Notes: generated from the letters alone by a model not told the origin. Positions 1 to 58,952 are shown, counted from the stretch's first letter. The stretch is 64,000 nt of DNA from an uncultured archaeon (GCA_963817525.1 CAWFOU010000001.1:448001-512000); one strand, 5' to 3'. Numbers and translations are program-made.

Positions 1-1977
1 CTTCGGGCCGAGATGGAGGCCAACGTAAAGGCGGCTGTCACAGCCATACCCGGGGTCGCGGAGGTGAAGATCAAGATGAGCGCCCACATACCCGCGACCC
101 GCCTTGTGGACCAGAGCGAGGTGATGAAGGGAGTGAAGAACATCATCGCGGTGGCGAGCGGGAAGGGCGGCGTTGGTAAGACCACGGTCGCAGTCAACCT
201 GGCGGTCAGCCTCGCATCGGCGGGCGCGAGGGTCGGGCTCCTCGACGCCGACATCTACGGGCCGACGGTCCCGGTGATGATGGGCGTGAAAGAGCGGCCG
301 GGCGCAGTGGGCAACATGATGGTCCCGCCGGCGGCGCATGGGGTGAAGGTAATTTCGTTGGGGTTCTTCTACAAGGACGACACGCCCCTGGTCTGGAGGG
401 GGCCGATGGTAGCCGGGGCGGTCAAGCAGCTCCTGACCCAGGTCGAGTGGGGCGACCTCGACTATCTTATCGTGGATCTTCCTCCCGGATGCCTCCCTGC
501 TGGGACGTTCGTCCTAACTGCCTCGAACGTGCCAAAACCCATCGAAGAAATCAAAGTAGGCGAATTCGTGCTGAGCTACGATGGAGAGAAGCTGGTTCCG
601 AGGCGCGTCCTGGGAGTCATTCCCCAAGGAAAACAGATGGTCTACAAGGTCAGGACCCCGAACAAGACGATTCTTGCGAGCGCGAACCATCCATTCCTGA
701 AATATTCTAGCAAAGTGCTGTGGAAAAGACTCGATCAATTGAAACCCAGGGACCGCGTGTGGGTGGCGAATTGCGTCCGTGGAGGCCAACCCTTGACCCT
801 GCCCAAAATCGACCACAATCCGAATTTTGTTCACCTACCTACAGAGACCACCTCCGATTTCATGCAGGTCATCGGCCACTTCCTAGGCGAGGGTTTCATC
901 AAGATCCAGAAGGGCGGGCGCGAACCTGTAGGACTGAGAATCTGCGAGCCCAGGGGCGGCAAGTTCAGTGCCGCCTACGAGAACCTCTACCAGAGGGTCT
1001 TCGGCTGCAAGACATTCGATGACAACAGCGGGGCCAAATTCGGCATCGCGTCAACGCCTTTGGCGAAGCTCTTCATCGCCCTCGACCTGGACCACAAAGC
1101 CGGAAGGAAGAGGGTTCCAGATTGGATCTTTGGACTGCCTCTAGAGCAGAGGCTCGCGTTCATCAAAGGCTATTCCGAGGCAGACGCGACCATCAGGCAC
1201 AGAGAGCGAACAAAGTCGCTTCCTGACTGGCAAGGGAGATACAGGGTCGTCTCCATAGTCCAAGACACGGTCGCCGTCGAAACTACGAACGAGCCTCTGG
1301 TGCGGCAGATGCACGAGCTTTGCGCGATGAGCGGCCTGCGCGCCAGCAACGTGCTGGAATCTTTCGACGAGGTCGTCAAACTGCCTGAAGGGCGTGAGAT
1401 CCACGACGTGAGGTCGTTTTCCTTCCAGCACTCGCTGAAACCGGATACTGCGCCTTTCAAGCTCGCGAGGATAACCTCGATAGAGCCAGTCGGAGAGATG
1501 CAGACCTTCGATCTGCAAGTAGATGAGCATGAAAACTTTGTTGCCAACGGATTCTTGGTGCACAACACCGGGGACGCGTCGCTCACGCTGGCGCAGACGG
1601 TCCCGTTGGGCGGGGTCGTGATAGTGACGACACCCCAGGAGGCCTCCTTGAACATCGCCACAAAGGCGCTAGCGATGTTCAAGAAGCTGAACGTCCCAAT
1701 ATTGGGCATAGTGGAGAACATGAGCTACTTCACGTGCCCGCACTGCGGCGAAAAGACCTACATCTTCTCCGAGGGCGGGGGGAAGAGGGCGGCGAAGGCC
1801 CTCGACGCGCAGTTTCTCGGCGAGATACCGATCTATCCCCTCATTCGGGAGCAGTCCGACGTAGGCGTCCCAGTCTCATCGGCGGCGCCCGACTCACCCG
1901 AGAGCGCGGCGTTCAAGGACATCGCGTTCAGGGTGGCCGGGATGGTAAGCATCGTCGCGTACGAGAACTCAAAATAG
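1..1977 (+). CDS. mrp: Mrp/NBP35 (ApbC) Fe-S cluster carrier ATPase, interrupted by an intein; 5' end probably lies upstream of the window
   Basis: Walker A SGKGGVGKTT, DADIYGP, WRGPM, DYLIVDLPPG|TGD and ENMS..CPHC motifs; reading frame is open back to base 1. Confidence 0.95.
   Translation, partial: LRAEMEANVKAAVTAIPGVAEVKIKMSAHIPATRLVDQSEVMKGVKNIIAVASGKGGVGKTTVAVNLAVSLASAGARVGLLDADIYGPTVPVMMGVKERPGAVGNMMVPPAAHGVKVISLGFFYKDDTPLVWRGPMVAGAVKQLLTQVEWGDLDYLIVDLPPGCLPAGTFVLTASNVPKPIEEIKVGEFVLSYDGEKLVPRRVLGVIPQGKQMVYKVRTPNKTILASANHPFLKYSSKVLWKRLDQLKPRDRVWVANCVRGGQPLTLPKIDHNPNFVHLPTETTSDFMQVIGHFLGEGFIKIQKGGREPVGLRICEPRGGKFSAAYENLYQRVFGCKTFDDNSGAKFGIASTPLAKLFIALDLDHKAGRKRVPDWIFGLPLEQRLAFIKGYSEADATIRHRERTKSLPDWQGRYRVVSIVQDTVAVETTNEPLVRQMHELCAMSGLRASNVLESFDEVVKLPEGREIHDVRSFSFQHSLKPDTAPFKLARITSIEPVGEMQTFDLQVDEHENFVANGFLVHNTGDASLTLAQTVPLGGVVIVTTPQEASLNIATKALAMFKKLNVPILGIVENMSYFTCPHCGEKTYIFSEGGGKRAAKALDAQFLGEIPIYPLIREQSDVGVPVSSAAPDSPESAAFKDIAFRVAGMVSIVAYENSK
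490..1566 (+). mobile_element. Intein (359 aa) with LAGLIDADG homing-endonuclease domain
   Basis: Begins CLPAGT after DLPPG; block B ASANHPF; LAGLIDADG-like VIGHFLGEG and FIKGYSEAD; ends FVANGFLVHN followed by Thr. Removing it restores DLPPGTGD. Confidence 0.95.
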
Positions 1978-41835: not shown

Positions 41836-44800
41836 CTATGTGTGCTGGAACGTCATGAAGACGGCGTTCACATAGTCCGTGACCTCGATCGTATAGTAGC
41901 CCGCTGTGGCCGTCGGGACCGAGAAGGTGACGCCCGACGGGATATTGCCCGACGCGGTCGTAGTGAAGGTGGCCAGCGTCGTCATCTGTCCTTCCGAGTT
42001 TATCCAGCCTATTATCGCAGTGGAGCTGGCGTCGAAGTCGCACGGGGCCGTGCAGCTCACGGTGACCGTGGCTCCTGTCGAGCCCGCCGTCGGGGTCGTG
42101 TAGGCGTTTGACTCGGTGATTATACCATACGGGTAGGGGACCGTCTCTCCCATGAGGGTCCCGTCGCTGAATATGCCTGTGAGGGCGAAGTACGCCTCGA
42201 AGGGCGTCCCGTAGTTGTTGCCGAACGGCTGGGTCGTGGAGCCGAGGGCAGCCGTGGCGGCGAAGTAGATGGTCGTCGGGACGTCGTAAGCGAGCGTCAG
42301 GAACTGGCCCGTGATCGAAGTATACGCGTTCACGGTCGTCGAGCCGGGGTTCAGCCCGTCGATGATGTAGTAGTGGGCCTGAATGTAGCCTAGGTCGTAC
42401 GTGTTGCTCTCCTTGGAGCCTATGGCTATCTCGCTCTGCGGCCAGAGGGTGAGCGCGCGATGCTGCGAGTCCACGTTGGTGAAGGTCGCCTCCCAGACCA
42501 GCACCGCGCTCGCGGGCACCCCCATGGTGGGGTAGCCGCCCACCTGGATGCCGCTCTGTGGGTCGAAGGGCGTGCTGAACGACATCGAGGCCTCCACCCA
42601 GGGGGACGAGGTGCCAAGAGTTATCGGTATTGTGTTCGCCGAGCCTCCGTCAGTGTTCGACGAGTCGTACTCGCTGCACCCCTCCACCGAGGTGCACGTG
42701 CCGCCGAGCGTGAACCCGCTCCCGGCGGTGAAGGAGTTTGAACCGGCGATGCCCTCGGCGTTCCCGACGATGAACGAGTCGGTGGAGGGGGTGTAGGCGG
42801 TGACCGCGGCGCCCGTCGAACTCGTGGAGGAGCTTCCTGTCGACGACAGAAAGTTCGACGTTGTGTACCCGTTGATCTCGTAGATCGAGACGGAGCCGGC
42901 CACCGTAGAGCCGAACGCCGTCGTTATCGTGTCGGCGCCCGAGGTTGCGGCCGTGGCGTACCAGATGTACGAGTAGTAGTTGGTGACGATGGGGGAAAAG
43001 ACCACTGCCGCTTCGACCCAGGGTTCGGAGGGGCTGATGGACATCGGGACTGTGGTGGCCGTCCCCACGCCCGTCTGGTACTCCCCGCAACCGGTGACCG
43101 AGCTGCACGTCCCAGAGAGTGTGTAGCCGGTGCCCGCAGTGTAGACCGTGGAAGTAGTCTCCGCGTTACCGATCACCACGGAACCAGTGGTGGGGGTGAT
43201 CGACGTGACAGAAGCCGTCGACTGGCGCTCGTCGTGGAGCTCCCGGTGGAAGTGAGGAGGCCGGTCGGGGTCACCCCGCTTATCTCGTATATCGAAACAG
43301 CGCCTGCGACCGTAGAGCCGAACGAGGCCGTTATCGTATCGGCGCCAGAGCTTCCAGCGGTCGCGTAGTAGATGTACGAGTAGTACGTGTTGGTCGCGAG
43401 CGGCGTGAAGGACAGCGCGGCCTCCACCCACGGCTTCGACGCGCTCATCGTGAACGGGGTCGTGGTCGCCGAGCCCAGACCCAACTCGTACTCGCTGCAC
43501 CCCCCTGATGCGTCGCTTGCGTCGCAGCCCCCGCTCCCCGAGGCCACCGTGGTGTAGCCGCTGCCCACCGTGTACGTTGTCGTTGCAGCCCCCGTCTCCA
43601 CGTTGCCCACGACGAAGGAGTTCGAGTTAGGGGTGAACGAGCCCACGCTGGCCGCCGTCGAGCCGGCGGAGGAACTGCCCGTCGAGGAGAGAAGGCCAGA
43701 CGTCGAGTAGCCGGTGATCTCGTAAATGGATACTGAGCCTGACACTGCTCTGTTGAAGGTCGCCGTTATCGTGTTGGCGCCCGAGCTCGCCGCGGTGGCG
43801 TACCAGATGTAGGAATAGTAACGGGGGCCCGGACCCGAACGATATCGCCGATTCGACCCAGGACGGTGACGTCCCAAGGTTGGTCGAAACGGTCGTGGAG
43901 CCAGACGAGCCGGACTCGTACTCGCTGCACCCGTACACGTTGGTGCACGTCCCCACTAGGGTATAGCCCCCTCCGTTGCTGAAAGTCGTCGAGCCCGCAT
44001 CGGTCTCCGTGTTGCCGATGACCACGGAATTAGCGACTGGAGTGAAGGAGGTGACAGTCGCCGTGTTCGACCCGCCGCTCGAGCTGCCCGTGGAGGTTAG
44101 CAACCCAGCCGCGGTCGCCCCGCTGATCTCGTATATCGAGACCGAGCCGGTCACGGAGGAGCCGAAGGAGGCCGTGATCGTGTCCGAGCCAGAGCTAAGC
44201 GCGTTGGCGTACCAGACGTATGAGTAGTACGTGACCGAGGCGACCGTGACGGAGTTGGAGACCCCGAGGACGAAGGCGTCGCCGAGCGTGTCAGTGGGGG
44301 TCGACGGAGCAGCGACTCCATACCACCCTAGGCCGAAGACCAGCAAGTTCCCCTCGGTCACCGCGGAAGAGTAGCCCAAGCCGCACGAAGACGAGTTGCA
44401 GTTCGACGCGTATTTGTGCTGGACGACCGTGGGCGTGCCAGCGCTCCCAGAGACGGACTGCGATGCCCCAATGGAGTAGGCATCGCCGAGGGTGTCAGTC
44501 ACCGTGGGGACGCCGCTCCCAGAGGACGTGCTGCCCAGCGAGGTCGATGGCATCACGCCGCTTGGCGGGTAGGCCCACGCTCGCATGAAGTTGTAGTATA
44601 TCGTGACCGAGTAGCCGTTCGAGGTGTATGATATCTGTCCTAGGTACAGGTGCGTGGCGCTGCTCATCGGGTTGCTGGTGACAGTGCCCGAGTCTCCCCC
44701 GGTCGCCGAGTAGAGCTGTGGCGCTATGTACGCGCTCCACGATGACGCGCCGGAGCCCGTGTAGGTCAAGGTGGCGTACAGCCAGCTCGAAGTGGCCGTA

Positions 44801-46689
44801 CCAGCTGCATTGGTGTCTTCTGTCGCCGTGCCGCCGCTGATGTAGTCTTGGTCGAAGTAGGCTTCACCGTACCCGCAGTTTCCGCTGATCGCGTCGTTGA
44901 CGCTGGATGCCGCCACGTTGTTGGCCAGTCCGACCGCCCCGGTGTCCGTACCCGTGTACGGGGAGTTCTCCGTGCACCCAGGGGACGAGAAGCTCGTCTC
45001 GGCGACAAGGCCGGCGTTGCTCATCGCCGTAGCGAAGACGAACGCGGGATTCGCCCCGTTGTAGCCAGTCAGCTTCAGAGCGTTGATGGTGGTTCCTCCC
45101 GGCCCGCCCACGCCCGTAGACTGCGAGAGCGTGTACCCGCTGTAGATCGAGAAGCTCGAGGTCGCCGTGTTCCCGTCGAAGTACGCGGTGAAGACGTTGG
45201 CCCCGTTGTCGTACTGGGCGTAGGTGGCGCTGAGCTGCGGCGCCTCGCCCCAGTAGTTGCCGTCGAAGTTCCCTGAGGTCCCCTCGAAGACCATGTATAT
45301 CGTGAGCGTCCCTCCGCTCGCCCCGATCGACAAGGTCAGCTTGACCCACGCCGTGGCCGAGGTCGATGTGGACCCGGCCGAACTGCACGTGTTCGAACAG
45401 GACTCCAACCAAGAGTAGAGAGGCGTGACGCATTGGCTGTCGGCACAGAACCTGACGTTGCCCAGGTTGGTCGCCTCGTAAGAGGAGTAGGTGGCCGGGT
45501 CCCACGTCACCATCTGCTGGAAGGGGTTCGGGGTGGCGGACGACTGGCTGTTGGTTATCGTTATCGGCACGTAGCTGTACTGTTGACTGGACGGCCAGCC
45601 GAGGCCGAGGACCAGCGTGTTGCCGGCAGTGACCGACGACGAGTACGCCAGCGAGCACGTCGAGGAGCTGCAGTCGGAGAGATACCTGTGCTGGACCACG
45701 GAGGGTGTGTTAGGGGTTATTGTCAAGGACTGCGACGCACCGAGAGTGAAAGTGTCCCCGCGGGTGTCGGTCGGGGCGGAAGGGGGGCTCTGGTTGGCCC
45801 ACCCGACGGCATACACCAGCGTGTGTCCCGCTGCGACGTTCGACGAGAAGGCCAGCCCGCAAGACACTGCGTTGCAGTTCGAGGTATACTTGTCCTGTAC
45901 CAGGGCGGGGGTCGAAGCTTCCGCCACCGATGACGAAACGCCTAGCTTGAACACGTCGCCGCGGGTGTCGGTGGGCACTCCCGAGGGCGGCGCGTTGCTT
46001 CCCCAGCCCACCGCGTCGACCAATATGTTCCCTGCCGTCACCGAGGAGGAGTATGCGAGTGCGCAGTTAGCTGAGTTGCAGTTGGCGACGTAGTTCTTCT
46101 GCACTAGAGAGGAGGCCTCAGGGAGCAGCTGCACCCACTTTAGGTTGTCGAGGTTGACCGACACGGCCTGGGTAGACCCGGTGTCGGAGGCCGGCTCGGG
46201 GTAGGTCTGAGTATAGGTGTTCCCGCGCGCCGTGAGCACCTTCAGGGTGTCCGTCGTCCCAGGAGTGTAGACATATCCGGTGTCGATGGTGGAAGACCCC
46301 TTGCCGGCATCGATTGTCTCCCACAGGGTGGGAGTGGAGTTGGTGCACCCGGACCCCGCCGGGAACCCGACCCCGTCGCACTTTAGCAGGGCGCCCGTCG
46401 AGGAGAGGACGAGGACTGCGGTCATGTTTACAGTGATCGAAGAGGTATCGTTTGCGAAGAACCCGACGTCTCCGTCGACCTCGAGAAGGGTGGTGACGGT
46501 GAGGCTCTCGGTCTGCCTTCCCTGGATCTTGTTAGCCGCGGCGAGCAGGCTCGTGGAGTACGCCGCGTTCTGCGAGTTCACATAGATGTAGTATGACGTC
46601 CCGACCGAGAACATTATCGCGAATATGATGACGATGGCGACGATGCCCGCTATCCCTCGCCTGCCTTTCCCCCTGCGCCCCATCTTCAT
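41836..46689 (-). CDS. Giant pilin-like adhesin paralog B (~1600 aa), broken by two frameshifts (~43825, ~43222)
   Basis: Class III signal RRG|IAGIVAIV; collinear with the 1817-aa paralog across ORFs 43627-46689, 43173-43877 and 41836-43500. Confidence 0.85.
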
Positions 46690-46719: not shown

Positions 46720-49700
46720 CTACGTGTGCTGGAACGTCATGAAGACCGAGTTGGTGTAGTCGGTCACCACGATAGTGTAGTAGCCCGCCGTGGCCGTGGG
46801 GACCGAGAAGGTGACGCCCGAGGGTATGTTGCCCGACGCGGTCATCGTAAAGGTGGTCAATGCCGTCATCTGCCCCGCAGAGTTTATCCACCCGACCTCC
46901 CCCTTCGCGTTGTCGGTGAAGTCGCACGGCGAAGTGCAGCTCACCGTGACCGTAGCGCTGGTGGAGCCCACCGTAGGGGTAGTGTATGCGTTCGCGTCGG
47001 TGATTATTCCGTAGGGATACGGGATGGTCTCCCCGAACAATGTCCCGTCGCTCATTATGCCGGAGAGGGCGAAGTACGCCTCGAAGGGCGTGAGGACGTT
47101 GGTCCCGAACGCCTGGGTCGTGGAGCCGAGCGCCGCAGTGGAGGCGAAGTAGAGGGTCGTCGGGACGTTGTAAGCTAGCGTGATGAAGGCGCTGGTCGAA
47201 TATGCGTTCACGGTCGTCGACCCCGAGTTCAGCCCGGAGATGAGGTAGTAGTGGGCCTGTGTGTAATCGATGTCGAACCCGTCGAACTCGGCAGAGCCGA
47301 TTGCCATCTCTGTCTGCGGCCAGATCGTGATGGCCCTGTGCAGCGGGTCGACGTTTGTGAACGTCACCTCCCATACGATGTCGGCGCCGCTCGGCACTCC
47401 CATGGTGGGGTAGCCGCCCACCTGGATGCCGCTCTGAGGGTTGAAGGGCGTGCTGAACGACATCGAGGCTTCCACCCAGGGGCTCGAGACGCTCAAGGTG
47501 ATCGGGACGGTGTTTGCCGCGCCGCCGTCGGTATTCGACGAGTCGTACTCGCTGCACCCCTCCACCGAGGTACAGGTGCCTGCGATCGTGAACCCGGTCG
47601 ACGCCGTGTAGTGCGTGGTCGCCGATACGGCCTCAGCGTTCCCGACGATGAAGGAGTCTGTGGCTGGCGTGTAGGAGGTTACCGCAGCGGTCGTTGAGCC
47701 CGTGGACGAGCTGCCCGTCGATGAGAGCGCCCCCGAGGTCGTGTACCCGTTGATCTCGTAGATCGAGACGGAGCCGGCCACCGTAGAGCCGAACGCCGTC
47801 GTTATCGTGTCGGCGCCCGAGGTTGCGGCCGTGGCGTACCAGATGTACGAGTAGTAGTTGGTGACGATGGGGGAAAAGACCACTGCCGCTTCGACCCAGG
47901 GTTCGGAGGGGCTGATGGACATCGGGACTGTGGTGGCCGTCCCCACGCCCGTCTGGTACTCCCCGCAACCGGTGACCGAGCTGCACGTCCCAGAGAGTGT
48001 GTAGCCGGTGCCCGCCGTGTAGGTGGTAGAGGGGGTCTCGGAATTCCCTATCACCACCGAGCCGGCCAGGTTCGGAGTCACAGACGAGACAGAGGTGCTC
48101 GCCTGGGCGGACGATGAGCCGCCGGTCGAGGTGAGAAGCCCCGTCGCGGTCACCCCGCTTATCTCGTATATCGAGACGGAGCCCGCGACAGTGCTGCCGA
48201 AGGATGCGGAGATCGTGTCTGCGCCCGAGCTCCCCGCGGTCGCGTAGTAGATGTAGGAGTAATACGTGCTAGCGGGCAGAGGAGAGAAGGACAAGGCGAC
48301 ATCCACCCAGGGAGTCGAGGCGCTGAGCGTGAAGGGCGTGGTGGTGGCCGAGCCGAGCCCTGCCTCGTACTCGCCGCAACCCTGCACTGAGCTGCAGGTA
48401 CCGGAGAGGGTGTAGCCGCTGCCGACGGTGAAGGTGGTGGTCGCCGAGCCGGCCTCGACGTTGCCAACCACAAAAGAGTTGGAATTGGGTGTGAATGAGC
48501 CCACGCTCGCGGACGTCGAACCCGCAGACGAGCTCCCGGTTGAGGAGAGCGTTGCCGAGGTAGTCGCCCCGTTGACCTCGTAGATCGATACTGTGCCCTG
48601 CACCGGGACCGAGTAGGCCGCGGTTATCGTGTCCGCGCCCGAGCTCCCCGCGGTCGCGTAGTAGATGTAGGAGTAGTATGTTGTAGTCGAAGGCTCGAAA
48701 GTCATCGCGCTCTCGACCCATGTGGCAGACGGGCTCATCGACATCGAGACCGTCGTTGCAGAGCCTACCCCCGTCTCGTATTCGCCGCATCCGTAGACCG
48801 AGCTACAGGTGCCGGCGAGCGTATACCCCGAACCCGCCGTGAACGTCGTCGAGGCCGTCTCGGTGTCGCCGATGACCACAGAGCTGGAGCTCGGGGTGAT
48901 GGAGGAGACTGATGAAGTCGCCCCAGCCGTGGACGAGCTTCCAAACGATGTGAGCGCGGGCGCAACGCCGCTGATCTCGTATATGGATACCGAGGCCGTA
49001 ACCGTGGAGCCAAAGCTGGCGGTTATCGTGTCCGCCCCTGAGCTGGCCGCGGCGGCGTACCAGATGTAAGAGTAGTACGTCGTGGCCGCCGTGACTGCGT
49101 CGGTCACCTCCGCCCCGTACGTATTGCTGCCGCCGCACGAGGTGGCCAGGTTCGACTGGGTGGAGGTCACAGTATTGTAGGCAACATACTCGTCGATCGT
49201 GTAGCCGCCGTTGGATTCCACCGACGTCCAGCCGTTGGGATTGCCCCCGGCATAGGCCGAGCAGGCGTAGATCAGTATGTCGTTCGCGTTCGAGGTGGAC
49301 ATCGTCGTGGAGGGGTTGCTGGTCGCCGCGTCGGTCGCGGGGACCGAGCCGTTCGGGTCGAACGGGCTGGCCGTGTTGGCCCCGCTTATCCCGAAGACCG
49401 TCATCCAGACCTCCTCGTTAGCCGTTCCGGAGAGCGTCGCGGTTATCGTGGCGGAGCTAAGGGTGGAAGACGCCACCGCGTACCACTCGTCCACGTTCTG
49501 GTAGTACTGGGCGCCCTCCTCGACGGCGCCGGTCTCCCTGCTGTGCCAGGTGAGCCCCCCTCCGGACATGCTAGAGACCGTCGGGGGACTGGTCGGCTCC
49601 TGAGTGACCGGGCTTATGTACGCGATTATGATGTCGTTCGCATGGCTCGTCGTGAGGGTCGTGGCTATGGAAGCGGCGCTCCCCGACTCTGCGGAGTTAG

Positions 49701-52173
49701 AGCCGTCTATGGCCAAGGTGCCCGTGCCCCCTATCTGGACGGAGTTGGACGCCCCAAGGGTGAAAGTGTCTCCTAGCGTGTCGGTGGGCGTGGAGGGCGC
49801 GGTCGCTCCAAACCATCCAAGTCCAAAGACGAGCATGTTCCCCGCCGTGACGGAGGAAGAGTATGCCAGCCCGCACGAGGCCGAGTTGCAGTTCGAGGCG
49901 TATCTGTGCTGGACCAGCGCGGGCGTGGAGGCGCCACCCGCGACTGACGACGAAGCTCCTAGATTGAAGGTGTCCCCGAGCGTGTCGCTGAGGGTAGGTG
50001 CGGCGTTGCCCGCGGGGCTGCCGAAGGCGACCGAAGGCATGACGTCGCTAGGAGGATAGTACCTCGCCCGCATGAAGTTGTACTCTATGTCGACGGCCGA
50101 GCTTCCGCCGATCGAGCCCATGTAGACGTTGGTCGCTCCGCTGATCGGATTTGTGAGGGTGTCAGTGCCTGAATACCCTGTCCCGGCGCTTTGACCCGGC
50201 GTCCCATAGAGCGTTGGAGTGATCTGCGCGTAGAACGAGGTCTCGCTTGAGCCCGTGTATGTCAGGCTGCCGTATAGCCAGGTCCCCGTGGCTGGCGATG
50301 CCCCGGCGCCGTTCGTGGGCTCGGTCATCGCACTGGACGTGTCACTGGCTTGGTAGAAGTAGTCGCTCCCGAACCCCTCACCGTAGGCGATTCCGTTGGT
50401 GATGCTGTTTGCAGATGCCGAGTTCACCAGCCCGCCGACGCCAGTGCCGTCGTTCGTGTCAGCGGCGAGGGCGTAGCTCGACTCCACTATCAGGCCCGTG
50501 TTGCTGAGGGCGGTATTGAACGAGAAGAAGGGGTCGTGAGCCGCTGGGTTGTTGGTTATCGCGATAACGTTGATCGTCCCGCCCGTGGGGCCTGTAACGC
50601 CTGTCACCTGTGCCAGTGTGAGGCCCGTATACAGAGTAAAGTCACCGGTCGCAGTGTCGCCGTTGAAGTAAGCGGCGAAGACGTTCGCCCCGTTGTCGTA
50701 TTGTGCATACGTAGAGGATAGCTGAGGCGCCTCGCCCCAGTAGTTGCCGTCGAACTGAGTGGACGTGGACTTGAAGACCATGTAAATCGTGAGCGTGCCT
50801 CCGTTTGCAGCTATCGCCGATGTGAGCTTGACCCATGCCGTGGCGGACGTCGACGCAGATCCGGCGGAGCTGCAGGTGCTAGAGCACGACTCGAGCCAAG
50901 CGTCCAACGGAGTGTTGCAGACTGTGTCCGCGCAGAAGCGGACGTTCCCGAGATTCGTCGCCTCATACGCAGAGTAGGTCGCGGGGTCCCACGTGACCAT
51001 CTGCTGGAAGGCGTTCGGGGTGGCGGACGCCTGGTTGTTCGTGATGGTGATGGGGATGTATTCGTAGAGCGTGCTCGAGTACCACCCGAGTCCGTCCACC
51101 AATGTGTTTGCCGCAGTGACAGACGAGGTGTATGCCAACGCGCACGTTGCCGAGTTGCAGTTTGAGAGGTACTTTTGCTGGACTATCGAGGGGTTTGCGG
51201 CACCCACCGTGACGGAATTTGAGGCGCCGAGCGTGAACGAGTCGCCGCGTGTGTCGGTGGGCGCCGAGGGCGCAGCCTGGTTAGCCCACCCCACCGCGTA
51301 GACGAGCTCGTGCCCCGCGGTTACAGACGAGGTGAAGGCCAGCCCGCATGTCGCCGCGTTGCAGTTAGAGGTGTACTTGTCCTGGACCAGTGCGGGCGAG
51401 GCGGAGATCGCCACGGAAGAGGAAGCGCCGAGGCTGAAGAGGTCGCCACGCGTGTCTGTCGGCACGCCCGCGGGCGGGGCGTTGTTGGCCCACCCTTCAG
51501 CATCGACCAGGATGTTCCCCGCCGTGACCGAGGAGGAGTATGCGAGGGCGCAGTTCGCAGAGTTGCAGTTGGCGACGTAGTTCTTCTGCACCAGGGAGGA
51601 TGCCTCGGGGACCAGCTGGATCCACCTCAGGTTGTCTAGGTTCACCGTCACCGACTGGCTGGACCCGGACTGGGACGCTGGCTCCGGGTAGCTCGCGGCA
51701 TAGTTGTTGCCGCGCGCCGTGAGCACCTTCACCGTGTCGGTCGTGCCCGCGACATAGACGTATCCGGTGTCGAAGGTGCCAGACCCGTCACCCGCGTTCA
51801 CTACCGCCCATAGCGAGGGCGTCGAGTTGCCGCAGCCCGCCCCGGCCGGGAAGCCGATCCCGTCGCACTTTAGCAGGGCGCCCGTCGATGAGATGACGAG
51901 GACCGCCGTCATGTTGACCGTCACCGAAGACGTGTTGTTGACGTAGAAGCCCACGTCCCCGTCCGATTCTAGGGTCGTGGTGACCGAGAGGCTCTCCTGG
52001 AGGGTACCCTGGACCTTGTTGGTCGCTTTGAGGAGGCTCGAGACGTAGCTCGCGTTCTCAGAGCCGATGAAGATGAAGTAGGAAGTCCCGACGGTGAAGA
52101 GGATGGCGAACATGATTACCGTGGCAACGATGCCTGCGATGGCCCTCCTGGAGGTGCGCCTCTCGAACTTCAA
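46720..52173 (-). CDS. Giant pilin-like adhesin paralog A (1817 aa) with DUF2341-like domain and nested repeats
   Basis: Class III signal RRA|IAGIVATV; YIPITITN..NVRF..WLES..WVKL..TIYM; no C-terminal TM segment. Confidence 0.88.
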   Translation of the reverse strand: MKFERRTSRRAIAGIVATVIMFAILFTVGTSYFIFIGSENASYVSSLLKATNKVQGTLQESLSVTTTLESDGDVGFYVNNTSSVTVNMTAVLVISSTGALLKCDGIGFPAGAGCGNSTPSLWAVVNAGDGSGTFDTGYVYVAGTTDTVKVLTARGNNYAASYPEPASQSGSSQSVTVNLDNLRWIQLVPEASSLVQKNYVANCNSANCALAYSSSVTAGNILVDAEGWANNAPPAGVPTDTRGDLFSLGASSSVAISASPALVQDKYTSNCNAATCGLAFTSSVTAGHELVYAVGWANQAAPSAPTDTRGDSFTLGASNSVTVGAANPSIVQQKYLSNCNSATCALAYTSSVTAANTLVDGLGWYSSTLYEYIPITITNNQASATPNAFQQMVTWDPATYSAYEATNLGNVRFCADTVCNTPLDAWLESCSSTCSSAGSASTSATAWVKLTSAIAANGGTLTIYMVFKSTSTQFDGNYWGEAPQLSSTYAQYDNGANVFAAYFNGDTATGDFTLYTGLTLAQVTGVTGPTGGTINVIAITNNPAAHDPFFSFNTALSNTGLIVESSYALAADTNDGTGVGGLVNSASANSITNGIAYGEGFGSDYFYQASDTSSAMTEPTNGAGASPATGTWLYGSLTYTGSSETSFYAQITPTLYGTPGQSAGTGYSGTDTLTNPISGATNVYMGSIGGSSAVDIEYNFMRARYYPPSDVMPSVAFGSPAGNAAPTLSDTLGDTFNLGASSSVAGGASTPALVQHRYASNCNSASCGLAYSSSVTAGNMLVFGLGWFGATAPSTPTDTLGDTFTLGASNSVQIGGTGTLAIDGSNSAESGSAASIATTLTTSHANDIIIAYISPVTQEPTSPPTVSSMSGGGLTWHSRETGAVEEGAQYYQNVDEWYAVASSTLSSATITATLSGTANEEVWMTVFGISGANTASPFDPNGSVPATDAATSNPSTTMSTSNANDILIYACSAYAGGNPNGWTSVESNGGYTIDEYVAYNTVTSTQSNLATSCGGSNTYGAEVTDAVTAATTYYSYIWYAAAASSGADTITASFGSTVTASVSIYEISGVAPALTSFGSSSTAGATSSVSSITPSSSSVVIGDTETASTTFTAGSGYTLAGTCSSVYGCGEYETGVGSATTVSMSMSPSATWVESAMTFEPSTTTYYSYIYYATAGSSGADTITAAYSVPVQGTVSIYEVNGATTSATLSSTGSSSAGSTSASVGSFTPNSNSFVVGNVEAGSATTTFTVGSGYTLSGTCSSVQGCGEYEAGLGSATTTPFTLSASTPWVDVALSFSPLPASTYYSYIYYATAGSSGADTISASFGSTVAGSVSIYEISGVTATGLLTSTGGSSSAQASTSVSSVTPNLAGSVVIGNSETPSTTYTAGTGYTLSGTCSSVTGCGEYQTGVGTATTVPMSISPSEPWVEAAVVFSPIVTNYYSYIWYATAATSGADTITTAFGSTVAGSVSIYEINGYTTSGALSSTGSSSTGSTTAAVTSYTPATDSFIVGNAEAVSATTHYTASTGFTIAGTCTSVEGCSEYDSSNTDGGAANTVPITLSVSSPWVEASMSFSTPFNPQSGIQVGGYPTMGVPSGADIVWEVTFTNVDPLHRAITIWPQTEMAIGSAEFDGFDIDYTQAHYYLISGLNSGSTTVNAYSTSAFITLAYNVPTTLYFASTAALGSTTQAFGTNVLTPFEAYFALSGIMSDGTLFGETIPYPYGIITDANAYTTPTVGSTSATVTVSCTSPCDFTDNAKGEVGWINSAGQMTALTTFTMTASGNIPSGVTFSVPTATAGYYTIVVTDYTNSVFMTFQHT

Positions 52174-52181
52174 GGCTCAGC

Positions 52182-52793
52182 TCACCTCTGCTGCGAGAAC
52201 GTCACGGTGTTGCTGTATAGGCCTGTCACCACGACCGTGTAGGTCGTGCCCGAGCCCGCGACCCCGAAAGTCTGCCCGTACGAGGGGCAGTTGCTGGTGG
52301 TCGGGGGGATTGTAAGCGTGTAGGACTGCTGGTTGGTCGTCTTGACGTTGGTCATCGTCACAGAAGGCGACTCGTATCCCGAAGCAGCGGTCTTGCACTG
52401 CGAGGTGAGCGTGCTCCTGAGGTCGTAGACGTAGTCCGCTTTGCTCGCGCCGGTCCCGCTAGAGGTGTAGAGCAGGTTGATGAGACCGAGCGAATCGTAG
52501 AGCCTGACTGAGTAGAGCTGCTCTGTGAGGCTGCCCGTGTTATAGATCCAGAAGGTGATGGAATTGGTCGAGGTGGTAGCCCCGAAGTACATGGTGGTGA
52601 CCGTGAAGTGCTCACTCAGCATGTCGTTGGTGGCCACCGCGTTGCTGTTCAGGGCGCCCTCGCTGGCTCCCGCCTGGCTCTGCACAAATCCCCAGGCGGC
52701 GGCGCCCGCGACCAGGGTCATCGCGATGGCCAGCATGGCGCCGACTACTTCCGACGCAGCAACGCGCCCGCTGCGGCCACGAGAAAACTTCAA
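52182..52793 (-). CDS. Archaeal type IV pilin
   Basis: Basic leader followed by ASEVVGAMLAIAMTLVAG hydrophobic helix; I.N.G and YTVVVTG.Y.N. Confidence 0.85.
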   Translation of the reverse strand: MKFSRGRSGRVAASEVVGAMLAIAMTLVAGAAAWGFVQSQAGASEGALNSNAVATNDMLSEHFTVTTMYFGATTSTNSITFWIYNTGSLTEQLYSVRLYDSLGLINLLYTSSGTGASKADYVYDLRSTLTSQCKTAASGYESPSVTMTNVKTTNQQSYTLTIPPTTSNCPSYGQTFGVAGSGTTYTVVVTGLYSNTVTFSQQR

Positions 52794-54496: not shown

Positions 54497-57130
54497 CTAC
54501 TCGAACGACGTGTCGAATTCCTGGTCGCCGTCGGCTTTGCCGCCTTTCCTCTTCTTGACCAGGAAGACTGCGGCCACGGCTCCACCGGCTCCTCCGACCG
54601 GGACGAGGAGGAGCGGGAACGTGGTCAGTTCTTGGGTTAGACCCTCGTTTGCCACCTTGTCCGCCTTGGCCGATGGCGGAGGGGCGCTTACCTGGACCGT
54701 GAAGTTAAGGGTCCGCGTGAGGAGCCCTCCAGGCGCGATCACCGCGGTGATCAGCACCGAACCAGCATGAGTCGGATGGAAGATCGCTACGGACGAGCCC
54801 TTCGCGTCGGTCGTGTCGTTGACTGCAGGCACCCCCGTCGGTTGGACGACTGTCGTCGACCTTGTGGACTTCACGCTCGTCGCAGACGCGGTGCTCGTCG
54901 TCGTCGTGGTTGATGAATTCGCGGGCTTCGGGGTGACTATTACAAGTCCGCCGCTGGAGGCTTTCCAATCGACCGCGGCCCCTGCCAGGGGCGACCCGTC
55001 GAGAGCGACGCTCACTGAAATGACCGACGTTTCGTTCGTGAGGATGCTCGCAGGACCTCCAGTCATTGTCTCCTCGCTGGGATAGGACAGGAAAGTGACC
55101 GCAAGCGAGGCCGTTGCAAGTCCTGGGGTGGAAAGCGTTAGAGTCGTCTCGCCCGGTACTTTGGGCTCGAGAGGTAAAGATGCATAGTCCTGCCCGACCC
55201 CTATGACTGCCGTGAGGACCTTCGAAATCACCGTGCTGTTGGACGAAGTAATCGTGATGTTCATCGGGGCTCTTGCTCGCGCTGGGCTGCCTGTTGCGTC
55301 CACAAGTTGGACTGCCATAAGAGGTAGTTGACGCGAAGTGCTCGGGCTAAACATGATCGTGTTGTCGTTCGGGGCGAATGCGGAAAGAGCGGACGGGGCA
55401 GGAATGACCGTGGAAAGATCCACAGAGGAGCTCGCGTATCCGCTGGTGAACGAGGAGACCAGCGCGGTCACATTCGCGGTTCCTTGCAAGATTCCGGCGG
55501 TCACGTTTACAACGGCAAACGTCTGACCCGCAGGGATTATGGCGTCGGAAACGCTAACAATTTGGTCTTGTGACGAAGAAAGACCTACAGGAATGTCGGA
55601 CGCGGCGACGGCGGGAGAGCCGGATGCATCCTCCAGCGAGAGTTCGAGGGCCGGATGCGTAGCTCCGTCTGCGGGCAGGGGGGTTGAGATAGCGCTGACA
55701 ATGACTTGCGAAGGCACGGCACCATAGGTTGCTAGAGAGGTCTCGGCCGGCAGGACGTTCTGCCCCGATGCGGTGAGAGTGGTCGTACCGACTTGGTAGG
55801 TCGACGTGAAGGTGACCGCCGCCCAGTTTTGGCCCATTGGAATTGCAAAATTGATGCTTGTGAAATTTCCAACGCCCGCCACCGAAGAAGTGAGAGTCAC
55901 CTCGGTCGGCCCGGTGGCGTTCACGGCGGGGGTACCCGCCGGATTCTCAAGTGAGACGACAACTGAGCTATAGGGACCGTGGTCAGCGAGGATAGGATTT
56001 GGTCCCGCGAAAATGTCAAGCTGGCACGTCGTCGCTCCCCCCGATGTGCACAAGGCAGGGCTCACAAAGGCAGGCGGGGAAATCGTGACGAGAGTCGAGC
56101 TTGATTGCAATCCAGGCGAACTTGCTGTGATGGTTGCACTTCCTGCCGCTGCCGATGTGACCGTGAAGGTGGCAAACGCCGAGATGCTACCTTCGGAGAT
56201 CGTGGCGGTCTCGTTTGCATCAACCACCGCTAAGTCGGAGCTTCTGATTTGGACCTGGATGTTGCGAGTCGCCAGGGTGGGGTTCCCGCCTGAGTCCGTC
56301 AGCGCCACGACCAGGCGACCTTCGCAGGAAGTGACTTCCGATGAGCAAGCTACCATGTCACCCGGTTGTGCCTCCAGCTTGAGTGCAAGGGAGGGAGACC
56401 CCAAGACCGAAATCGCCGCCGTTCCCGAAGCGAATCCGGGCGCGGAGGCGGTGATTAGTGCCGAGCCAGGGACAAAGCCACTCGTGTAGTTTATCTCTTC
56501 CAGATATTCCCCTTGTTTCATTGTAGTAGTTGCGGCGGTGACGTTAACGACGTTCGTGTTTGAGGAGTAAAGCGATATCGGGACGTCCGCAATAGCCTTC
56601 GCCGGTAGACCGACATCGTCTTCGAGCTGAAGAATCAGGTAGCCCGTGCTCGCTGCACTGGCTGGGACAGTGTCTGGTACCGCTTTTATCACCAGCTGCG
56701 TCGGATAGCCCACGGCAATCACGGTAGTCACGGAAGTGGAAGCAGTTATCAGACCCGTTGTCGTCGCGGTTACCGTCGTCACGCCAGCGGTGTGGGTCGT
56801 CGTGAAGTTGGCTATAGCGTACGCCTGGCCTGCCGGAATCTCGACATCTCCCGTGACAATTCCCACGTTCTCTTGCGACGAAGTAAGTGAAACATTGATG
56901 TCCGTGAGGGCGACGGTGGGTTCGCCGTTCGAACCTATCACTGACACAACGACCGCGGGGTAGGTGTTGTTATCCGCCGGAAGACTCGGCGGTATAGTTG
57001 ACATCGCGAGGGCGGCCGGCACCAGAGACTTCGAGGCCGCTGCGTGAGCGGCGTTCAATGGAAGCGCGCCGGCTATCGTAAGACCGAGGAGGAGGATGCC
57101 AATTCCAAGCGCACGAGTCTTGTCACGCAA
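54497..57130 (-). CDS. Cell-surface protein with tandem Ig-like (invasin/Big-type) repeats and C-terminal TM segment
   Basis: Signal peptide; ~100-aa repeats P..LPAD..V.L.D..G.P..A..I.L.SS..G..ITA; TM segment plus KKRK. Confidence 0.8.
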   Translation of the reverse strand: MRDKTRALGIGILLLGLTIAGALPLNAAHAAASKSLVPAALAMSTIPPSLPADNNTYPAVVVSVIGSNGEPTVALTDINVSLTSSQENVGIVTGDVEIPAGQAYAIANFTTTHTAGVTTVTATTTGLITASTSVTTVIAVGYPTQLVIKAVPDTVPASAASTGYLILQLEDDVGLPAKAIADVPISLYSSNTNVVNVTAATTTMKQGEYLEEINYTSGFVPGSALITASAPGFASGTAAISVLGSPSLALKLEAQPGDMVACSSEVTSCEGRLVVALTDSGGNPTLATRNIQVQIRSSDLAVVDANETATISEGSISAFATFTVTSAAAGSATITASSPGLQSSSTLVTISPPAFVSPALCTSGGATTCQLDIFAGPNPILADHGPYSSVVVSLENPAGTPAVNATGPTEVTLTSSVAGVGNFTSINFAIPMGQNWAAVTFTSTYQVGTTTLTASGQNVLPAETSLATYGAVPSQVIVSAISTPLPADGATHPALELSLEDASGSPAVAASDIPVGLSSSQDQIVSVSDAIIPAGQTFAVVNVTAGILQGTANVTALVSSFTSGYASSSVDLSTVIPAPSALSAFAPNDNTIMFSPSTSRQLPLMAVQLVDATGSPARARAPMNITITSSNSTVISKVLTAVIGVGQDYASLPLEPKVPGETTLTLSTPGLATASLAVTFLSYPSEETMTGGPASILTNETSVISVSVALDGSPLAGAAVDWKASSGGLVIVTPKPANSSTTTTTSTASATSVKSTRSTTVVQPTGVPAVNDTTDAKGSSVAIFHPTHAGSVLITAVIAPGGLLTRTLNFTVQVSAPPPSAKADKVANEGLTQELTTFPLLLVPVGGAGGAVAAVFLVKKRKGGKADGDQEFDTSFE

Positions 57131-57221: not shown

Positions 57222-58952
57222 CTAAATGCCGTGACCCAATATCGGGCCGGACAAGGCGACCATCATTGCGCCAACAATGACCAGCGCGAGCGAATGTTTG
57301 AAGCCGTCCGCCACGGTCCCGCCGCCCATCTTCCCCGCGACGAACCCGATGACCCAACCGTCGAAGATTGAAGCCGTCAGGAGCGACTGGACTGTGGCTG
57401 GCGTGATCGTGATGAGATTGGAAGCGGTCGCTGCTGTCTCGCCGGCGAACTTTATAGGAGTGGAAAGGAAGTACACCATCATAAAGGTCGTCATAACCAA
57501 CAGTATCGCTGCCATGTAAACCACGAAGACATACGACCTCAGCGCAGCCTTCTTGTCGGCCTCGATTTCGTTAACCTTCCTGGTGAAGTCGGCCATTTGA
57601 GAGAAGCTGTTCACCGTGCCGCCCCCGACGTCGACGACCTCGACCATCAGCGTGCCAATTGCCATCGTTATCCAGCTGTCGACGGACTCTGCAAACGTCT
57701 TGATGACCTTCACGATGGGTAGACCCCAAGAGATCTGCGACCCCATTGTCCTGATTGACTTGGATAGGCGGCCGTAGTTCTTCGATCCGAGCTGCTCTAT
57801 GCTCCCCTCCGGCGATAGGCCTATCTTTCGTCCCTCTGCCACGTCCCTTATGAAGTCAGGCAGCGCCTTTTCCAGGCCCGATCGTTCACGGGACTGCCTG
57901 AACGCGACGACCGAGGGGACTATCACAATCGAGGCAAGCGCAACGGATACGTGAATGCTGAGCTGCAGGGGGAGCGGGATCACGAACAAAGCCAGGCCGA
58001 CGGGCATGCAGGCCAACAGCACGTAGTATGGGCGTTTGTTGAAGTAGGGCTGCTTGGGCTGGGTCCCGTCTATTATGAAGATGAACAGGCCAGACAGGGC
58101 AGGCACGACCAAGTAGGAAAAGATGAAGAGGGTCTGCAGTCCCGAATTGTTGTGGGCAATCACACCCTCCAGCTGGAAGAGGCTGAAGAGCGTAATCCCC
58201 ATCACCGCGGTCACGGTCAGGTATGCCTCAGCCAAGGTTCCCACGGAGTCCGTGATGCGCCTGACTTTTGACGTACCCTGGTCGAGCGTCTCTTTGAGCT
58301 TGTTGTTGGTATAGTTCTTGACGTCTCCCCCTACTTTCAGGACGGTCGTGTAGCCGTAGAGAAACTCGGCGAACGACTTGTTCGGCATGTACTTTGCGGC
58401 GGTCTCGAAGGCGGTGATGGGGTCGGTTCCGAAGACGTCTATGTCGACTAGGATCCTCTTAGCTTCCTTGGCTGAGGCTGGGAAGACCTTCCCCATGCCG
58501 GATATCCTCCTCAGCGTGGAGATCGGAGAGACTCCTCCGCCGGAGAGGACGCCCAAGAAGCCGATTAGCATGGGCAGTTCGTTTTCCAAGGCCTCCGAGC
58601 GGGACCCTTGAGAGATCTTCGCTGCGTTCCAAACTATGACGAACACTATGGGCGGCGCGACAACGACCATGAACAAGAATATGATGTGTAGCATCAGGCC
58701 CAGGACTACACAAATCGCCACAGGGATGATCGAGAGGATGGTCGTGAAGAGAGCCAGCGACACGAGCCCTTCCGGGGTGATTCGCAGGTTGGACTTCAAT
58801 ATCTCGTCCCTCATCTGCGGGGATGAGGCTGCGATTTTCTTCCCCTGCTTTCCGAACATCTTGTAGGCGGTCGACGCCATCTTGTCAAAGAAGGTGAGCT
58901 TCGAGCCCTCTTTGGAGGGACGCGCCGTCTGGATGGTGGCGACTTGGCTCAA
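57222..58952 (-). CDS. Type II/IV secretion membrane platform protein (TadC/FlaJ-like, two T2SSF domains)
   Basis: LE.ELP, D..VFG.DP..A and LPDFIRDVAE....G; multi-TM. Confidence 0.9.
   Translation of the reverse strand: MSQVATIQTARPSKEGSKLTFFDKMASTAYKMFGKQGKKIAASSPQMRDEILKSNLRITPEGLVSLALFTTILSIIPVAICVVLGLMLHIIFLFMVVVAPPIVFVIVWNAAKISQGSRSEALENELPMLIGFLGVLSGGGVSPISTLRRISGMGKVFPASAKEAKRILVDIDVFGTDPITAFETAAKYMPNKSFAEFLYGYTTVLKVGGDVKNYTNNKLKETLDQGTSKVRRITDSVGTLAEAYLTVTAVMGITLFSLFQLEGVIAHNNSGLQTLFIFSYLVVPALSGLFIFIIDGTQPKQPYFNKRPYYVLLACMPVGLALFVIPLPLQLSIHVSVALASIVIVPSVVAFRQSRERSGLEKALPDFIRDVAEGRKIGLSPEGSIEQLGSKNYGRLSKSIRTMGSQISWGLPIVKVIKTFAESVDSWITMAIGTLMVEVVDVGGGTVNSFSQMADFTRKVNEIEADKKAALRSYVFVVYMAAILLVMTTFMMVYFLSTPIKFAGETAATASNLITITPATVQSLLTASIFDGWVIGFVAGKMGGGTVADGFKHSLALVIVGAMMVALSGPILGHGI

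Follow-up and report, generated by a model that had tools for sequence, protein, structure and literature searches.

The window analysed here is a 64,000-nucleotide stretch of the genome of an uncultured archaeon (GCA_963817525.1, CAWFOU010000001.1:448001-512000), in which positions are counted from the first letter. On its minus strand, between 46720 and 52173, lies an open reading frame (ORF) of 1817 amino acids (aa) that starts with TTG, 9 nucleotides (nt) past the stop codon of a small pilin-like gene, and that encodes, in this order, a pilin-like head, four N-halves of ~68 aa, a central domain of 214 aa, four C-halves of ~135 aa and a tail of 242 aa. The initial annotation of this DNA, made from the sequence alone, had proposed that the product is an adhesin in which domains are inserted into one another, each in the same hairpin loop of the previous one, i.e. 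A1[A2[A3[A4[tip]B4]B3]B2]B1. This arrangement is supported in that it fits every test that we ran, and a self-nested stalk carried by a pilus adhesin is, taken as a whole, the best explanation of the gene, to which we assign a probability of roughly 0.72; the nested topology by itself is held with about the same confidence and the role with less. The parts of the gene are listed below, where profile positions refer to a profile of the unsplit domain, model-based remarks to AlphaFold2 predictions of a segment of the protein and of a homologue (P0039), and pLDDT to the predicted local distance difference test; the profile and the models are described further on.

52054..52173, minus strand: start, charged N-terminus (KFERRTSRRA) and hydrophobic helix IAGIVATVIMFAILFTVGTSYF, aa 1-40 (sequence read directly; helix at 13-61 in the P0039 model)
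51652..52053, minus strand: globular pilin domain, aa 41-174 (the equivalent P0039 residues 60-167 align structurally to solved pilins)
51604..51651, minus strand: conserved strand VTVNLDNLRWIQL, aa 175-190, proposed first piece (D0a) of an immunoglobulin (Ig)-like base domain (suggested by the P0039 model via alignment)
51400..51603, minus strand: N-half 1, aa 191-258 (profile positions 24-86)
51196..51399, minus strand: N-half 2, aa 259-326 (profile positions 20-86)
51079..51195, minus strand: N-half 3, first piece, aa 327-365, ending in GLGW (profile positions 23-64)
50014..51078, minus strand: DUF2341-like side-branch module of 355 aa, aa 366-720, in the GW loop of N-half 3 (PF10102, 17.7 bits)
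49927..50013, minus strand: N-half 3, second piece, aa 721-749 (BLAST to N1, N2 and N4 with E 1e-5 to 4e-7; positions 39-67 of the hidden Markov model (HMM) of the N-half)
49720..49926, minus strand: N-half 4, aa 750-818 (profile positions 20-90; pLDDT 94-98)
49078..49719, minus strand: central tip domain, aa 819-1032, a diverged unsplit copy of the same domain family (aa 884-1007 match profile positions 83-203, independent E-value (i-E) 3.3e-10)
48679..49077, minus strand: C-half 1, aa 1033-1165, proposed partner of N-half 4 (profile positions 76-228; pLDDT 92-98)
48265..48678, minus strand: C-half 2, aa 1166-1303, proposed partner of N-half 3 (profile positions 89-230; pairing suggested by position orthology)
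47857..48264, minus strand: C-half 3, aa 1304-1439, proposed partner of N-half 2 (profile positions 90-228; putative pairing)
47449..47856, minus strand: C-half 4, aa 1440-1575, proposed partner of N-half 1 (profile positions 90-224; putative pairing)
46993..47448, minus strand: conserved linker, aa 1576-1599, followed by the proposed second piece of the base domain (D0b), aa ~1600-1727 (maps to P0039 residues 847-974)
46720..46992, minus strand: terminal beta domain of ~90 aa, aa 1728-1817, and stop codon (P0039 residues 977-1070 against small beta domains, Z 7.1-7.9 for 9jtz_A and 5zl9_A, which are generic matches)

The repeats in the 1817-aa protein go far beyond chance. When the segments were compared with their own protein by BLASTP, the N-halves proved mutually 60-67% identical (E 1e-23 to 9e-30) and the C-halves 55-70% (E 6e-45 to 1e-57). 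The motif of the N-half starts at aa 194, 262, 330 and 753 (nt ~51600, 51390, 51190 and 49920) and that of the C-half, YYSYI, at aa 1033, 1166, 1304 and 1440 (nt 49077, 48678, 48264 and 47856), so that four halves of either kind lie exactly where the initial annotation had put them. Successive halves are linked by only 3-9 residues. Each half holds one close pair of cysteines (C-x4-C in the N-halves, C-x5-C in the C-halves) and further pairs are found in the head, the DUF2341-like insert, the central domain and the tail; as the close pairs lie within single halves, and none is indicated between the outgoing and the returning chain, the proposal that disulfides brace the stalk is left without support. 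The protein as a whole matches no family in Pfam or NCBIfam.

Past the GW motif (aa ~365) the third N-half is interrupted by 355 aa and it continues from aa 721, in a piece that yields a weak match to the unsplit-domain profile (positions 59-89, i-E 0.053). The side branch is thus found inside the third N-half, as had been proposed, but its relation to DUF2341 (PF10102) needs qualification: the insert scores 17.7 bits (E 0.0051), below the Pfam gathering cut-off of 23.4, and should therefore be viewed as a diverged relative and not as a scored member of the family, whereas in P0005 and P0010 the homologous inserts exceed it, with 26.4 and 30.2 bits. A search of solved structures with the sequence of the insert gave no match (best E 0.29). 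A copy of the insert with 71% identity occurs in another gene of the same genome (contig C1:558924-559976), where no N- or C-halves adjoin it. The domain has two loops at which insertions are seen. One is the junction between its N- and C-part, where the nested copies and the tip domains are found; the other follows GW within the N-half and hosts DUF2341-like modules, central-like domains or unsplit copies.

That an N-half and a C-half are the two pieces of one domain could be read from relatives in which both are contiguous. One of these is provided by a paralogue of the gene within the window:

41836..46689, minus strand: paralogue B, with four N-halves, a DUF2341-like insert, four C-halves and a tail, without the central domain (collinear with the intact homologue P0008)

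The fourth N-half of B runs directly into a C-half (...TVASVTYYSY, aa 815-824), which bears out the direct junction via TVASVT that had been noted before; B's own ORF of 1020 aa, however, contains one C-half only, and four are recovered when the gene is read through against the 1617-aa P0008, to which it aligns in three frame pieces with 84%, 85% and 92% identity. Two frame changes break the gene, one near 43804-43835 and one near 43227-43269. Its share in three soil-metagenome runs was 0.12, 0.06 and 0.00, on contigs without the two frame-change sites, and in the sequencing-run listing no RNA run was found that carries it; B is either a fresh pseudogene or the bearer of assembly errors.

The junction domain of B (P0043, 206 aa) was used as a query for an exhaustive search with HMMER, which returned 200 proteins at E <= 1e-3, and many of the distant relatives match the query in one stretch from about residue 3 to 203. 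None of the 19 relatives that were scanned has a Pfam family over this ~200-aa domain, for which there is no Pfam or NCBIfam model. From the 150 matches listed among the 200 we chose 31 small single-stretch proteins, which together with P0043 yielded the unsplit-domain profile of 236 positions. In the 1817-aa protein, the N-halves match this profile over positions 20-90, the C-halves over 76/89-230. The two kinds of halves therefore match complementary parts of the profile, with a break at about position 88, and are pieces of one domain. The initial annotation had drawn the same conclusion from the ORF at 7420-8832 (P0003), which indeed carries both halves contiguously (aa 35-265 match profile positions 6-229 in one stretch, i-E 3.9e-40). 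Behind the unsplit domain of P0003 come a pure (ST)n repeat of ~100 aa, repeats of ~11 aa in series and, at the C-terminus, a membrane anchor; to judge from its sequence, P0003 is related to the stalk units but has a single such domain and is anchored to the cell.

The same 31 proteins, aligned to aa 750-1165, cover N4 for 0.68-0.77 and C1 for 0.92-1.00, and the central domain for 0.01; on this alignment the central domain reads as an insertion between N4 and C1. It was announced as a domain of ~220 aa and is present with 214, and one property can be added, namely that its match to the profile (aa 884-1007) indicates that it is itself a diverged unsplit copy of the repeated domain. A search of solved structures with a profile of the alignment of aa 750-1165 found nothing (best E 0.26).

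Unequal numbers of halves among homologues had been named beforehand as an observation that would refute the nested arrangement. A word-index search gave 40 relatives, several of which carry the source label of a Nitrososphaerales or Thaumarchaeota archaeon, and 42 proteins were scanned with HMMs of both halves, the head, the tail and the inserts. Those with both pilin head and tail were taken as complete (29 of 42); the 13 set aside are the broken paralogue B, three proteins of other architecture (P0003, P0041, P0042) and nine with a cut or partial tail (P0014, P0029-33, P0037, P0038, P0040). The numbers of N-starts and C-halves are equal in 27/29 complete homologues, i.e. 3+3 in 16, 4+4 in ten and 5+5 in one (P0035), and P0009 and P0022 deviate by a single additional C-half hit each, which turned out to be an unsplit domain at the tip or within an insert (profile positions 39-225 and 61-228). 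By the unsplit-domain profile, P0035 reads N1 N2 N3a [unsplit] N3b [unsplit] C C C. Balance is also seen in P0051 and P0057 (head-n-D-c-tail), and P0049 has the architecture nnDcc. More distant proteins contain the ~200-aa domain in ordinary tandem (DD to DDDD). P0037, which is cut at its end, has six N-halves ahead of a central domain, so that deeper nests exist. An odd order, c-D-n, was observed in P0096. Within the genome itself, two further paralogues stand in tandem outside the window (contig C4:2493-12507, minus strand), one being 4+4 with a central domain (P0007) and the other 3+3 with two central-like domains and a DUF2341-like module; together with the pair in the window they bring the number of copies to four, with different tips.

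To see which N-half belongs to which C-half, we compared the levels of 26 regular proteins (the irregular P0009, P0022 and P0035 were left out). Covariation between the halves would not serve to separate a mirrored from a parallel pairing, since the signal is the same for any fixed pairing of levels. The N-halves of 3+3 and 4+4 proteins correspond by their position from the N-terminus. The C-halves correspond only if the count starts at the C-terminus (identities on that diagonal average 62%, 67% and 59%), the extra C-half of the 4+4 proteins being the first one, which adjoins the extra N-half. Trees of the C-halves give best-clade F1 values of 0.76, 0.94, 0.69 and 0.46 when the level is counted from the end, against 0.57, 0.59, 0.51 and 0.57 by index from the first C-half. 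The end-counted orthology and the trees thus imply that each gain or loss of a unit concerned an N and the C next to it, midway along the chain, which is what nesting would predict and is contrary to a parallel pairing of the halves. In B, P0008, P0036 and P0039 the innermost N-half is joined to a C-half in the manner of the single-domain proteins. As a consequence, the innermost level must close on itself, and with links of a few residues between successive halves the next level can hardly do otherwise than close around it. For the outer levels, the pairs N1-C4, N2-C3 and N3-C2 would follow from the counts, the orthology, the geometry of the chain and the model of a homologue.

Structure prediction was read in terms of confidence values and of the ranges of structural alignments (VIA) against 48,161 PDB representatives. 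AlphaFold2 models aa 750-1165, i.e. N4, the central domain and C1, with a mean pLDDT of 88.9 (N4 94-98, C1 92-98) and a predicted template modelling score (pTM) of 0.72. Small beta-sandwiches make up 40 of the 50 listed structural matches, with 78-112 residues aligned and a range on the model from 1-11 to 316-378; other matches align 68-146 residues within 63..286 only, and the central domain by itself matches beta-rich domains such as 6d7a_B (Z 5.5 over 142 aa; model range 72..282). As N4 (69 aa) and the first strands of C1 (model aa 284-321) amount to 107 residues, the simplest reading of the model is that N4 and the start of C1 form one sandwich from which the central domain is folded apart. 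At this innermost level, for which a prediction had been proposed as a check, the model is confident, and its alignments join N4 to the first strands of C1 while leaving out the domain between them. The best matches are a phage receptor-binding head (5e7f_G, Z 6.1), PliG (4dzg_A, Z 6.1) and YomS (6i5o_A, Z 5.9), and further ones include GOLD domains, the Tk-SP jelly roll (3afg_B, Z 5.2) and carbohydrate-binding modules; with Z <= 6.1 for the best of them and all values under 8, they do not suffice to assign the repeated domain to a fold family. Foldseek searches of the PDB with both models produced long alignments with low template modelling (TM) scores to large beta proteins, the one usable match being the pilin 8fk7_A.

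Among predicted viral structures (BFVD), many proteins of 205-253 aa from uncultured tailed phages match the model of aa 750-1165 with probability 1.00, for instance A0A6J7WIY4 and A0A6J7WC60 (TM 0.64 each, root-mean-square deviation (rmsd) 4.7 and 5.5, identity 20% and 19%), and minor tail proteins of mycobacteriophages do so with probability 0.99-1.00 and lower TM scores. The nearest clusters in the ESM Atlas are unnamed viral proteins (score 0.96), which we take as a lead only. On these models the ~200-aa domain matches one that is also present in phage minor tail proteins.

The homologue P0039 (1070 aa, 3+3, without inserts, 44% identical overall) was modelled in full with a mean pLDDT of 75; its halves reach ~70-93, with N1 and N2 at 79-93 and N3, which is directly joined to its C-half, at 85-91. 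In one structural listing seven matches, and in another 14, align 110-125 residues (rmsd 3.0-4.5) over a range of ~174/181..971/977, among others with Ig-like domains of beta-galactosidases, the C-terminal domain of Kir6.2, VPS26 and domain 3 of HAP2. The model thereby indicates an Ig-like sandwich composed of the strand that precedes N1 and the region that follows the final C-half, which implies that the chain returns to its start and that the stalk is inserted in a further, unrelated base domain. Mapped from P0039, this base domain would comprise aa 175-190 and ~1600-1727 of the 1817-aa protein.

The N-terminus of the protein, MKFERRTSRRA/IAGIVATVIMFAILFTVGTSYF, consists of a short charged stretch and a hydrophobic helix, which we take to resemble the archaeal class III (prepilin-like) signal and the core helix of a pilin. 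Archaeal class III signals combine a short charged start with a hydrophobic helix of ~20 residues and a prepilin-peptidase-type site. In the P0039 model, residues 60-167 align with the type IV pilin of Pyrobaculum calidifontis (8fk7_A) with Z 11.2 and an rmsd of 2.0 over 92 of 136 residues, and the same head fold is found in Sulfolobus FlaF/FlaG (5tug/5tuh; 5tuh_A, Z 10.1) and in the Aap filament (8q30, Z 7.3). These archaeal pilins share with the protein the N-terminal hydrophobic helix and a locus with a T2SSE ATPase and a T2SSF platform; they measure 110-170 aa, to which the 1817-aa protein adds ~1640 further residues. The genes concerned lie upstream on the same strand, those of the platform and the ATPase at a distance of 5-8 kb:

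52182..52793, minus strand: small pilin-like protein of 203 aa, candidate major pilin, N-terminus RSGRVAASEVVGAMLAIAMTLVAGAAAWGF (sequence read directly; directly upstream)
57222-58952, minus strand: type IV pilus platform protein (Pfam T2SSF 1e-19; best NCBIfam match UpsF, 6e-45)
58949-60571, minus strand: type IV pilus ATPase (Pfam T2SSE 5.5e-38; best NCBIfam match FlaI, 2e-101)

The small pilin-like protein has no family match in Pfam or NCBIfam. From its gene content we read the locus as one for an archaeal type IV pilus. Between the assembly genes and the pilins stands a gene (54497-57130, minus strand) for an 877-aa protein that may belong to the surface layer or be associated with the pilus. 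It combines a signal peptide and a C-terminal membrane anchor with many Ig-like repeats (weak Big_1, E 2.7e-4) and a Thr/Ser-rich stretch. At a distance of a few kb from the locus, at 37030-38097 on the minus strand, an FtsZ-family protein is encoded (Tubulin 7e-38, FtsZ_C 8e-26), which may merit attention, since division of the Cdv type is what this archaeal group is usually associated with.

No filament can have a pilin of 1817 aa as its repeating unit, and the role that we consider most likely is therefore that of a minor adhesin, probably at the tip. Binding is likely to fall to the tip domain and the DUF2341-like branch, and the resemblance to phage tail proteins and carbohydrate-binding modules would fit the binding of glycans.

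The nested arrangement is carried by the complementary halves, the balanced counts, the outside-in orthology, the model of the innermost level and the return of the chain in P0039, and a number of points weigh against it. The pairing within the models was read only from the first and last aligned residue of the structural alignments, and these alignments are weak (Z <= 6.1 for the model of aa 750-1165, 6.7-7.6 for the base domain), below the level at which they would tell more than a common arrangement. Because the input alignment for AlphaFold2 held unsplit relatives, the contact between N4 and C1 in part restates the homology, and the unsplit-domain profile contains one sequence from the window itself (P0043). 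The mirror order of the outer pairs (N1-C4, N2-C3, N3-C2) is a deduction, and the identities among levels conflict on the parent of the innermost unit, N4 being closest to N3 (63%) but C1 to C3 (59%). A C-half of P0039 alone (residues 540-666) aligns over 93 residues with the jelly roll 9ues_B (Z 7.8), and may thus be fairly self-sufficient. On the side of function, no Pfam or NCBIfam model of a pilin or archaellin matches the protein or its first 190 aa, the platform and ATPase score below the curated cut-offs of NCBIfam with bindosome proteins as next-best matches (BasF 6.7e-32, BasE 2.3e-63), and the expression of the protein, its adhesive role, its ligand and its location at the tip are presumed.

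A self-sufficient C-half is also what would be expected if N- and C-halves were two independent types of domain in tandem arrays, like beads on a string, with their equal counts a by-product of duplication, and the outer pairs, being deduced, leave some room for this. We nevertheless consider it very improbable, since the halves match complementary, non-overlapping parts of one profile, unsplit relatives span both in one stretch and none of the relatives seen had halves of just one kind, since the balance holds over 3+3, 4+4 and 5+5 with gains and losses only as adjacent N plus C in the middle of the chain, and since, in the model, a single sandwich takes in both N4 and the first C1 strands. 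Balanced counts would be needed as well if the halves complemented each other between molecules, i.e. if the N-halves of one subunit paired with the C-halves of another by domain swapping or in a manner like donor-strand exchange, giving dimers or polymers, and a precedent exists in the pneumococcal adhesin RrgA, where the split halves of domain D2 reassemble in trans (PMC5333627). The directly joined innermost N- and C-halves of B, P0008, P0036 and P0039, which imply that at least that level closes within one chain, the confidence of the monomer models across the halves and the links of 3-9 residues, which favour that neighbours close in register, make us give this possibility even less credence.

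A different matter is whether the same nested fold could have another job, as a glycan-binding stalk anchored in the membrane or in a pseudopilus of a bindosome-like uptake system. The second-best matches of the platform and the ATPase to BasF and BasE, in a setting where all scores are under the curated cut-offs, agree with this, as do the nearest structural neighbours of the domain, which are carbohydrate-binding modules and receptor-binding or minor tail proteins of phages. On the other hand, the best NCBIfam matches are UpsF and FlaI and not the Bas proteins, the head is similar to that of a pilin known to form filaments, the gene directly upstream is that of a small pilin and no genes for ABC transporters were seen in the scanned ORFs beside the locus, so that we regard such a role as unlikely, though as the alternative that deserves most attention. 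The reading that we prefer remains that of a self-nested stalk on an adhesin of a type IV pilus.

Recursive insertion of beta domains, a rare design, is already known, as is a nested pilus adhesin. The first is exemplified by Si3 of the beta' subunit of cyanobacterial RNA polymerase, which was solved by crystallography and cryo-EM for Thermosynechococcus/Synechococcus and consists of eight sandwich-barrel hybrid motifs, four of them discontinuous, in a rod of 150 Å that is anchored at both ends in the trigger loop (PMC10895346); in a recent survey in which single-level insertions dominate, it is called a six-level recursive insertion (PMC13114784). Si3 as described there and the present family have in common that homologous beta domains, several of which are discontinuous, are nested into an elongated rod with both chain ends together at the base. 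Si3 differs in being intracellular, within the trigger loop of an enzyme, and in its irregular, branched nesting with four of eight domains discontinuous, whereas in the family of the 1817-aa protein an unnamed ~200-aa domain forms a regular mirror series (N1..Nn, tip, C1..Cn), the series belongs to an extracellular protein with a pilin fused to it, and the depth ranges from 1 to at least 6 among relatives, with two defined insertion loops.

The second case is RrgA, the tip adhesin of pilus-1 of Streptococcus pneumoniae, in which D3 is inserted in D2 and D2/D3 in D1 (PMC5333627). Here, too, distant halves clasp into one beta sandwich on a pilus adhesin with the binding module at the far end, but that pilus is a sortase-assembled one of a Gram-positive species, the nested domains are mutually unrelated, the levels number two and the halves are locked by isopeptide bonds. 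The 1817-aa protein has no LPxTG motif in its sequence and no vWA or other Pfam match, so that the sortase signature of the RrgA type is not seen, and its head is of the type IV pilin kind. A type IV pilin module with a bulky extra module and a direct role in adhesion is described for PilB of Streptococcus sanguinis (PMC8179133), which differs in being bacterial and in having one grafted module without self-nesting. What sets the present case apart is the regular mirror series of one unnamed domain, the variable depth among close relatives, the two insertion loops and the setting of an archaeal type IV pilin. No paper on this adhesin family was found in the literature, which is weak evidence of its absence from print, given that a name to search for does not exist.

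The above suggests the following picture. The gene product would be a pilin-like adhesin of a Nitrososphaerales-type archaeon, a minor subunit that probably sits at the tip of an archaeal type IV pilus. Its pilin head is followed by one ~200-aa beta-sandwich domain that would be nested in itself four times. Each copy would be opened at the same loop, namely the junction of its N- and C-part, with the next copy seated there, so that the chain would run outward through N1-N4 to a diverged, unsplit fifth copy at the tip and back through C1-C4, with the mirror pairing N4-C1, N3-C2, N2-C3 and N1-C4. The GW loop of the third level would bear the 355-aa DUF2341-like module as a side branch, and the stalk as a whole would probably sit within one more, unrelated Ig-like base domain, by which both of its ends are placed beside the pilin head. 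In the course of evolution, the length of the stalk and its tip would have been altered by the addition, removal and exchange of whole units at the innermost junction.

Extended to the relatives, there is probably a family of archaeal pilus adhesins, a generalization that we hold with somewhat more reserve than the reading of the single protein, whose stalk is a regular self-nesting of one unnamed domain that ranges from one split level to at least six N-halves, grows telescopically at the innermost junction and is itself inserted in a base domain beside the pilin.

Long surface adhesins almost all consist of domains chained in series. An out-and-back stalk differs in that neighbouring levels are connected by two covalent links, and with both ends of the stalk at the anchor the tip can be exchanged without touching the anchor. 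If this reading of the family is true, no regular self-nesting of greater depth would be known from an extracellular protein, and the stalk would be a natural scaffold of which every level tolerates insertions at two defined loops. The natural series of 3+3, 4+4, 5+5 and up to six N-halves would allow the study of how repeated self-insertion originates and folds, the family would be suited to the study of how a nested stalk responds to force, and the two loops at which a small beta domain accepts whole domains may be of use in protein display. For the organisms themselves, the protein is likely to represent a device for attachment or glycan binding of Nitrososphaerales-type archaea, the surface biology of which is little known.

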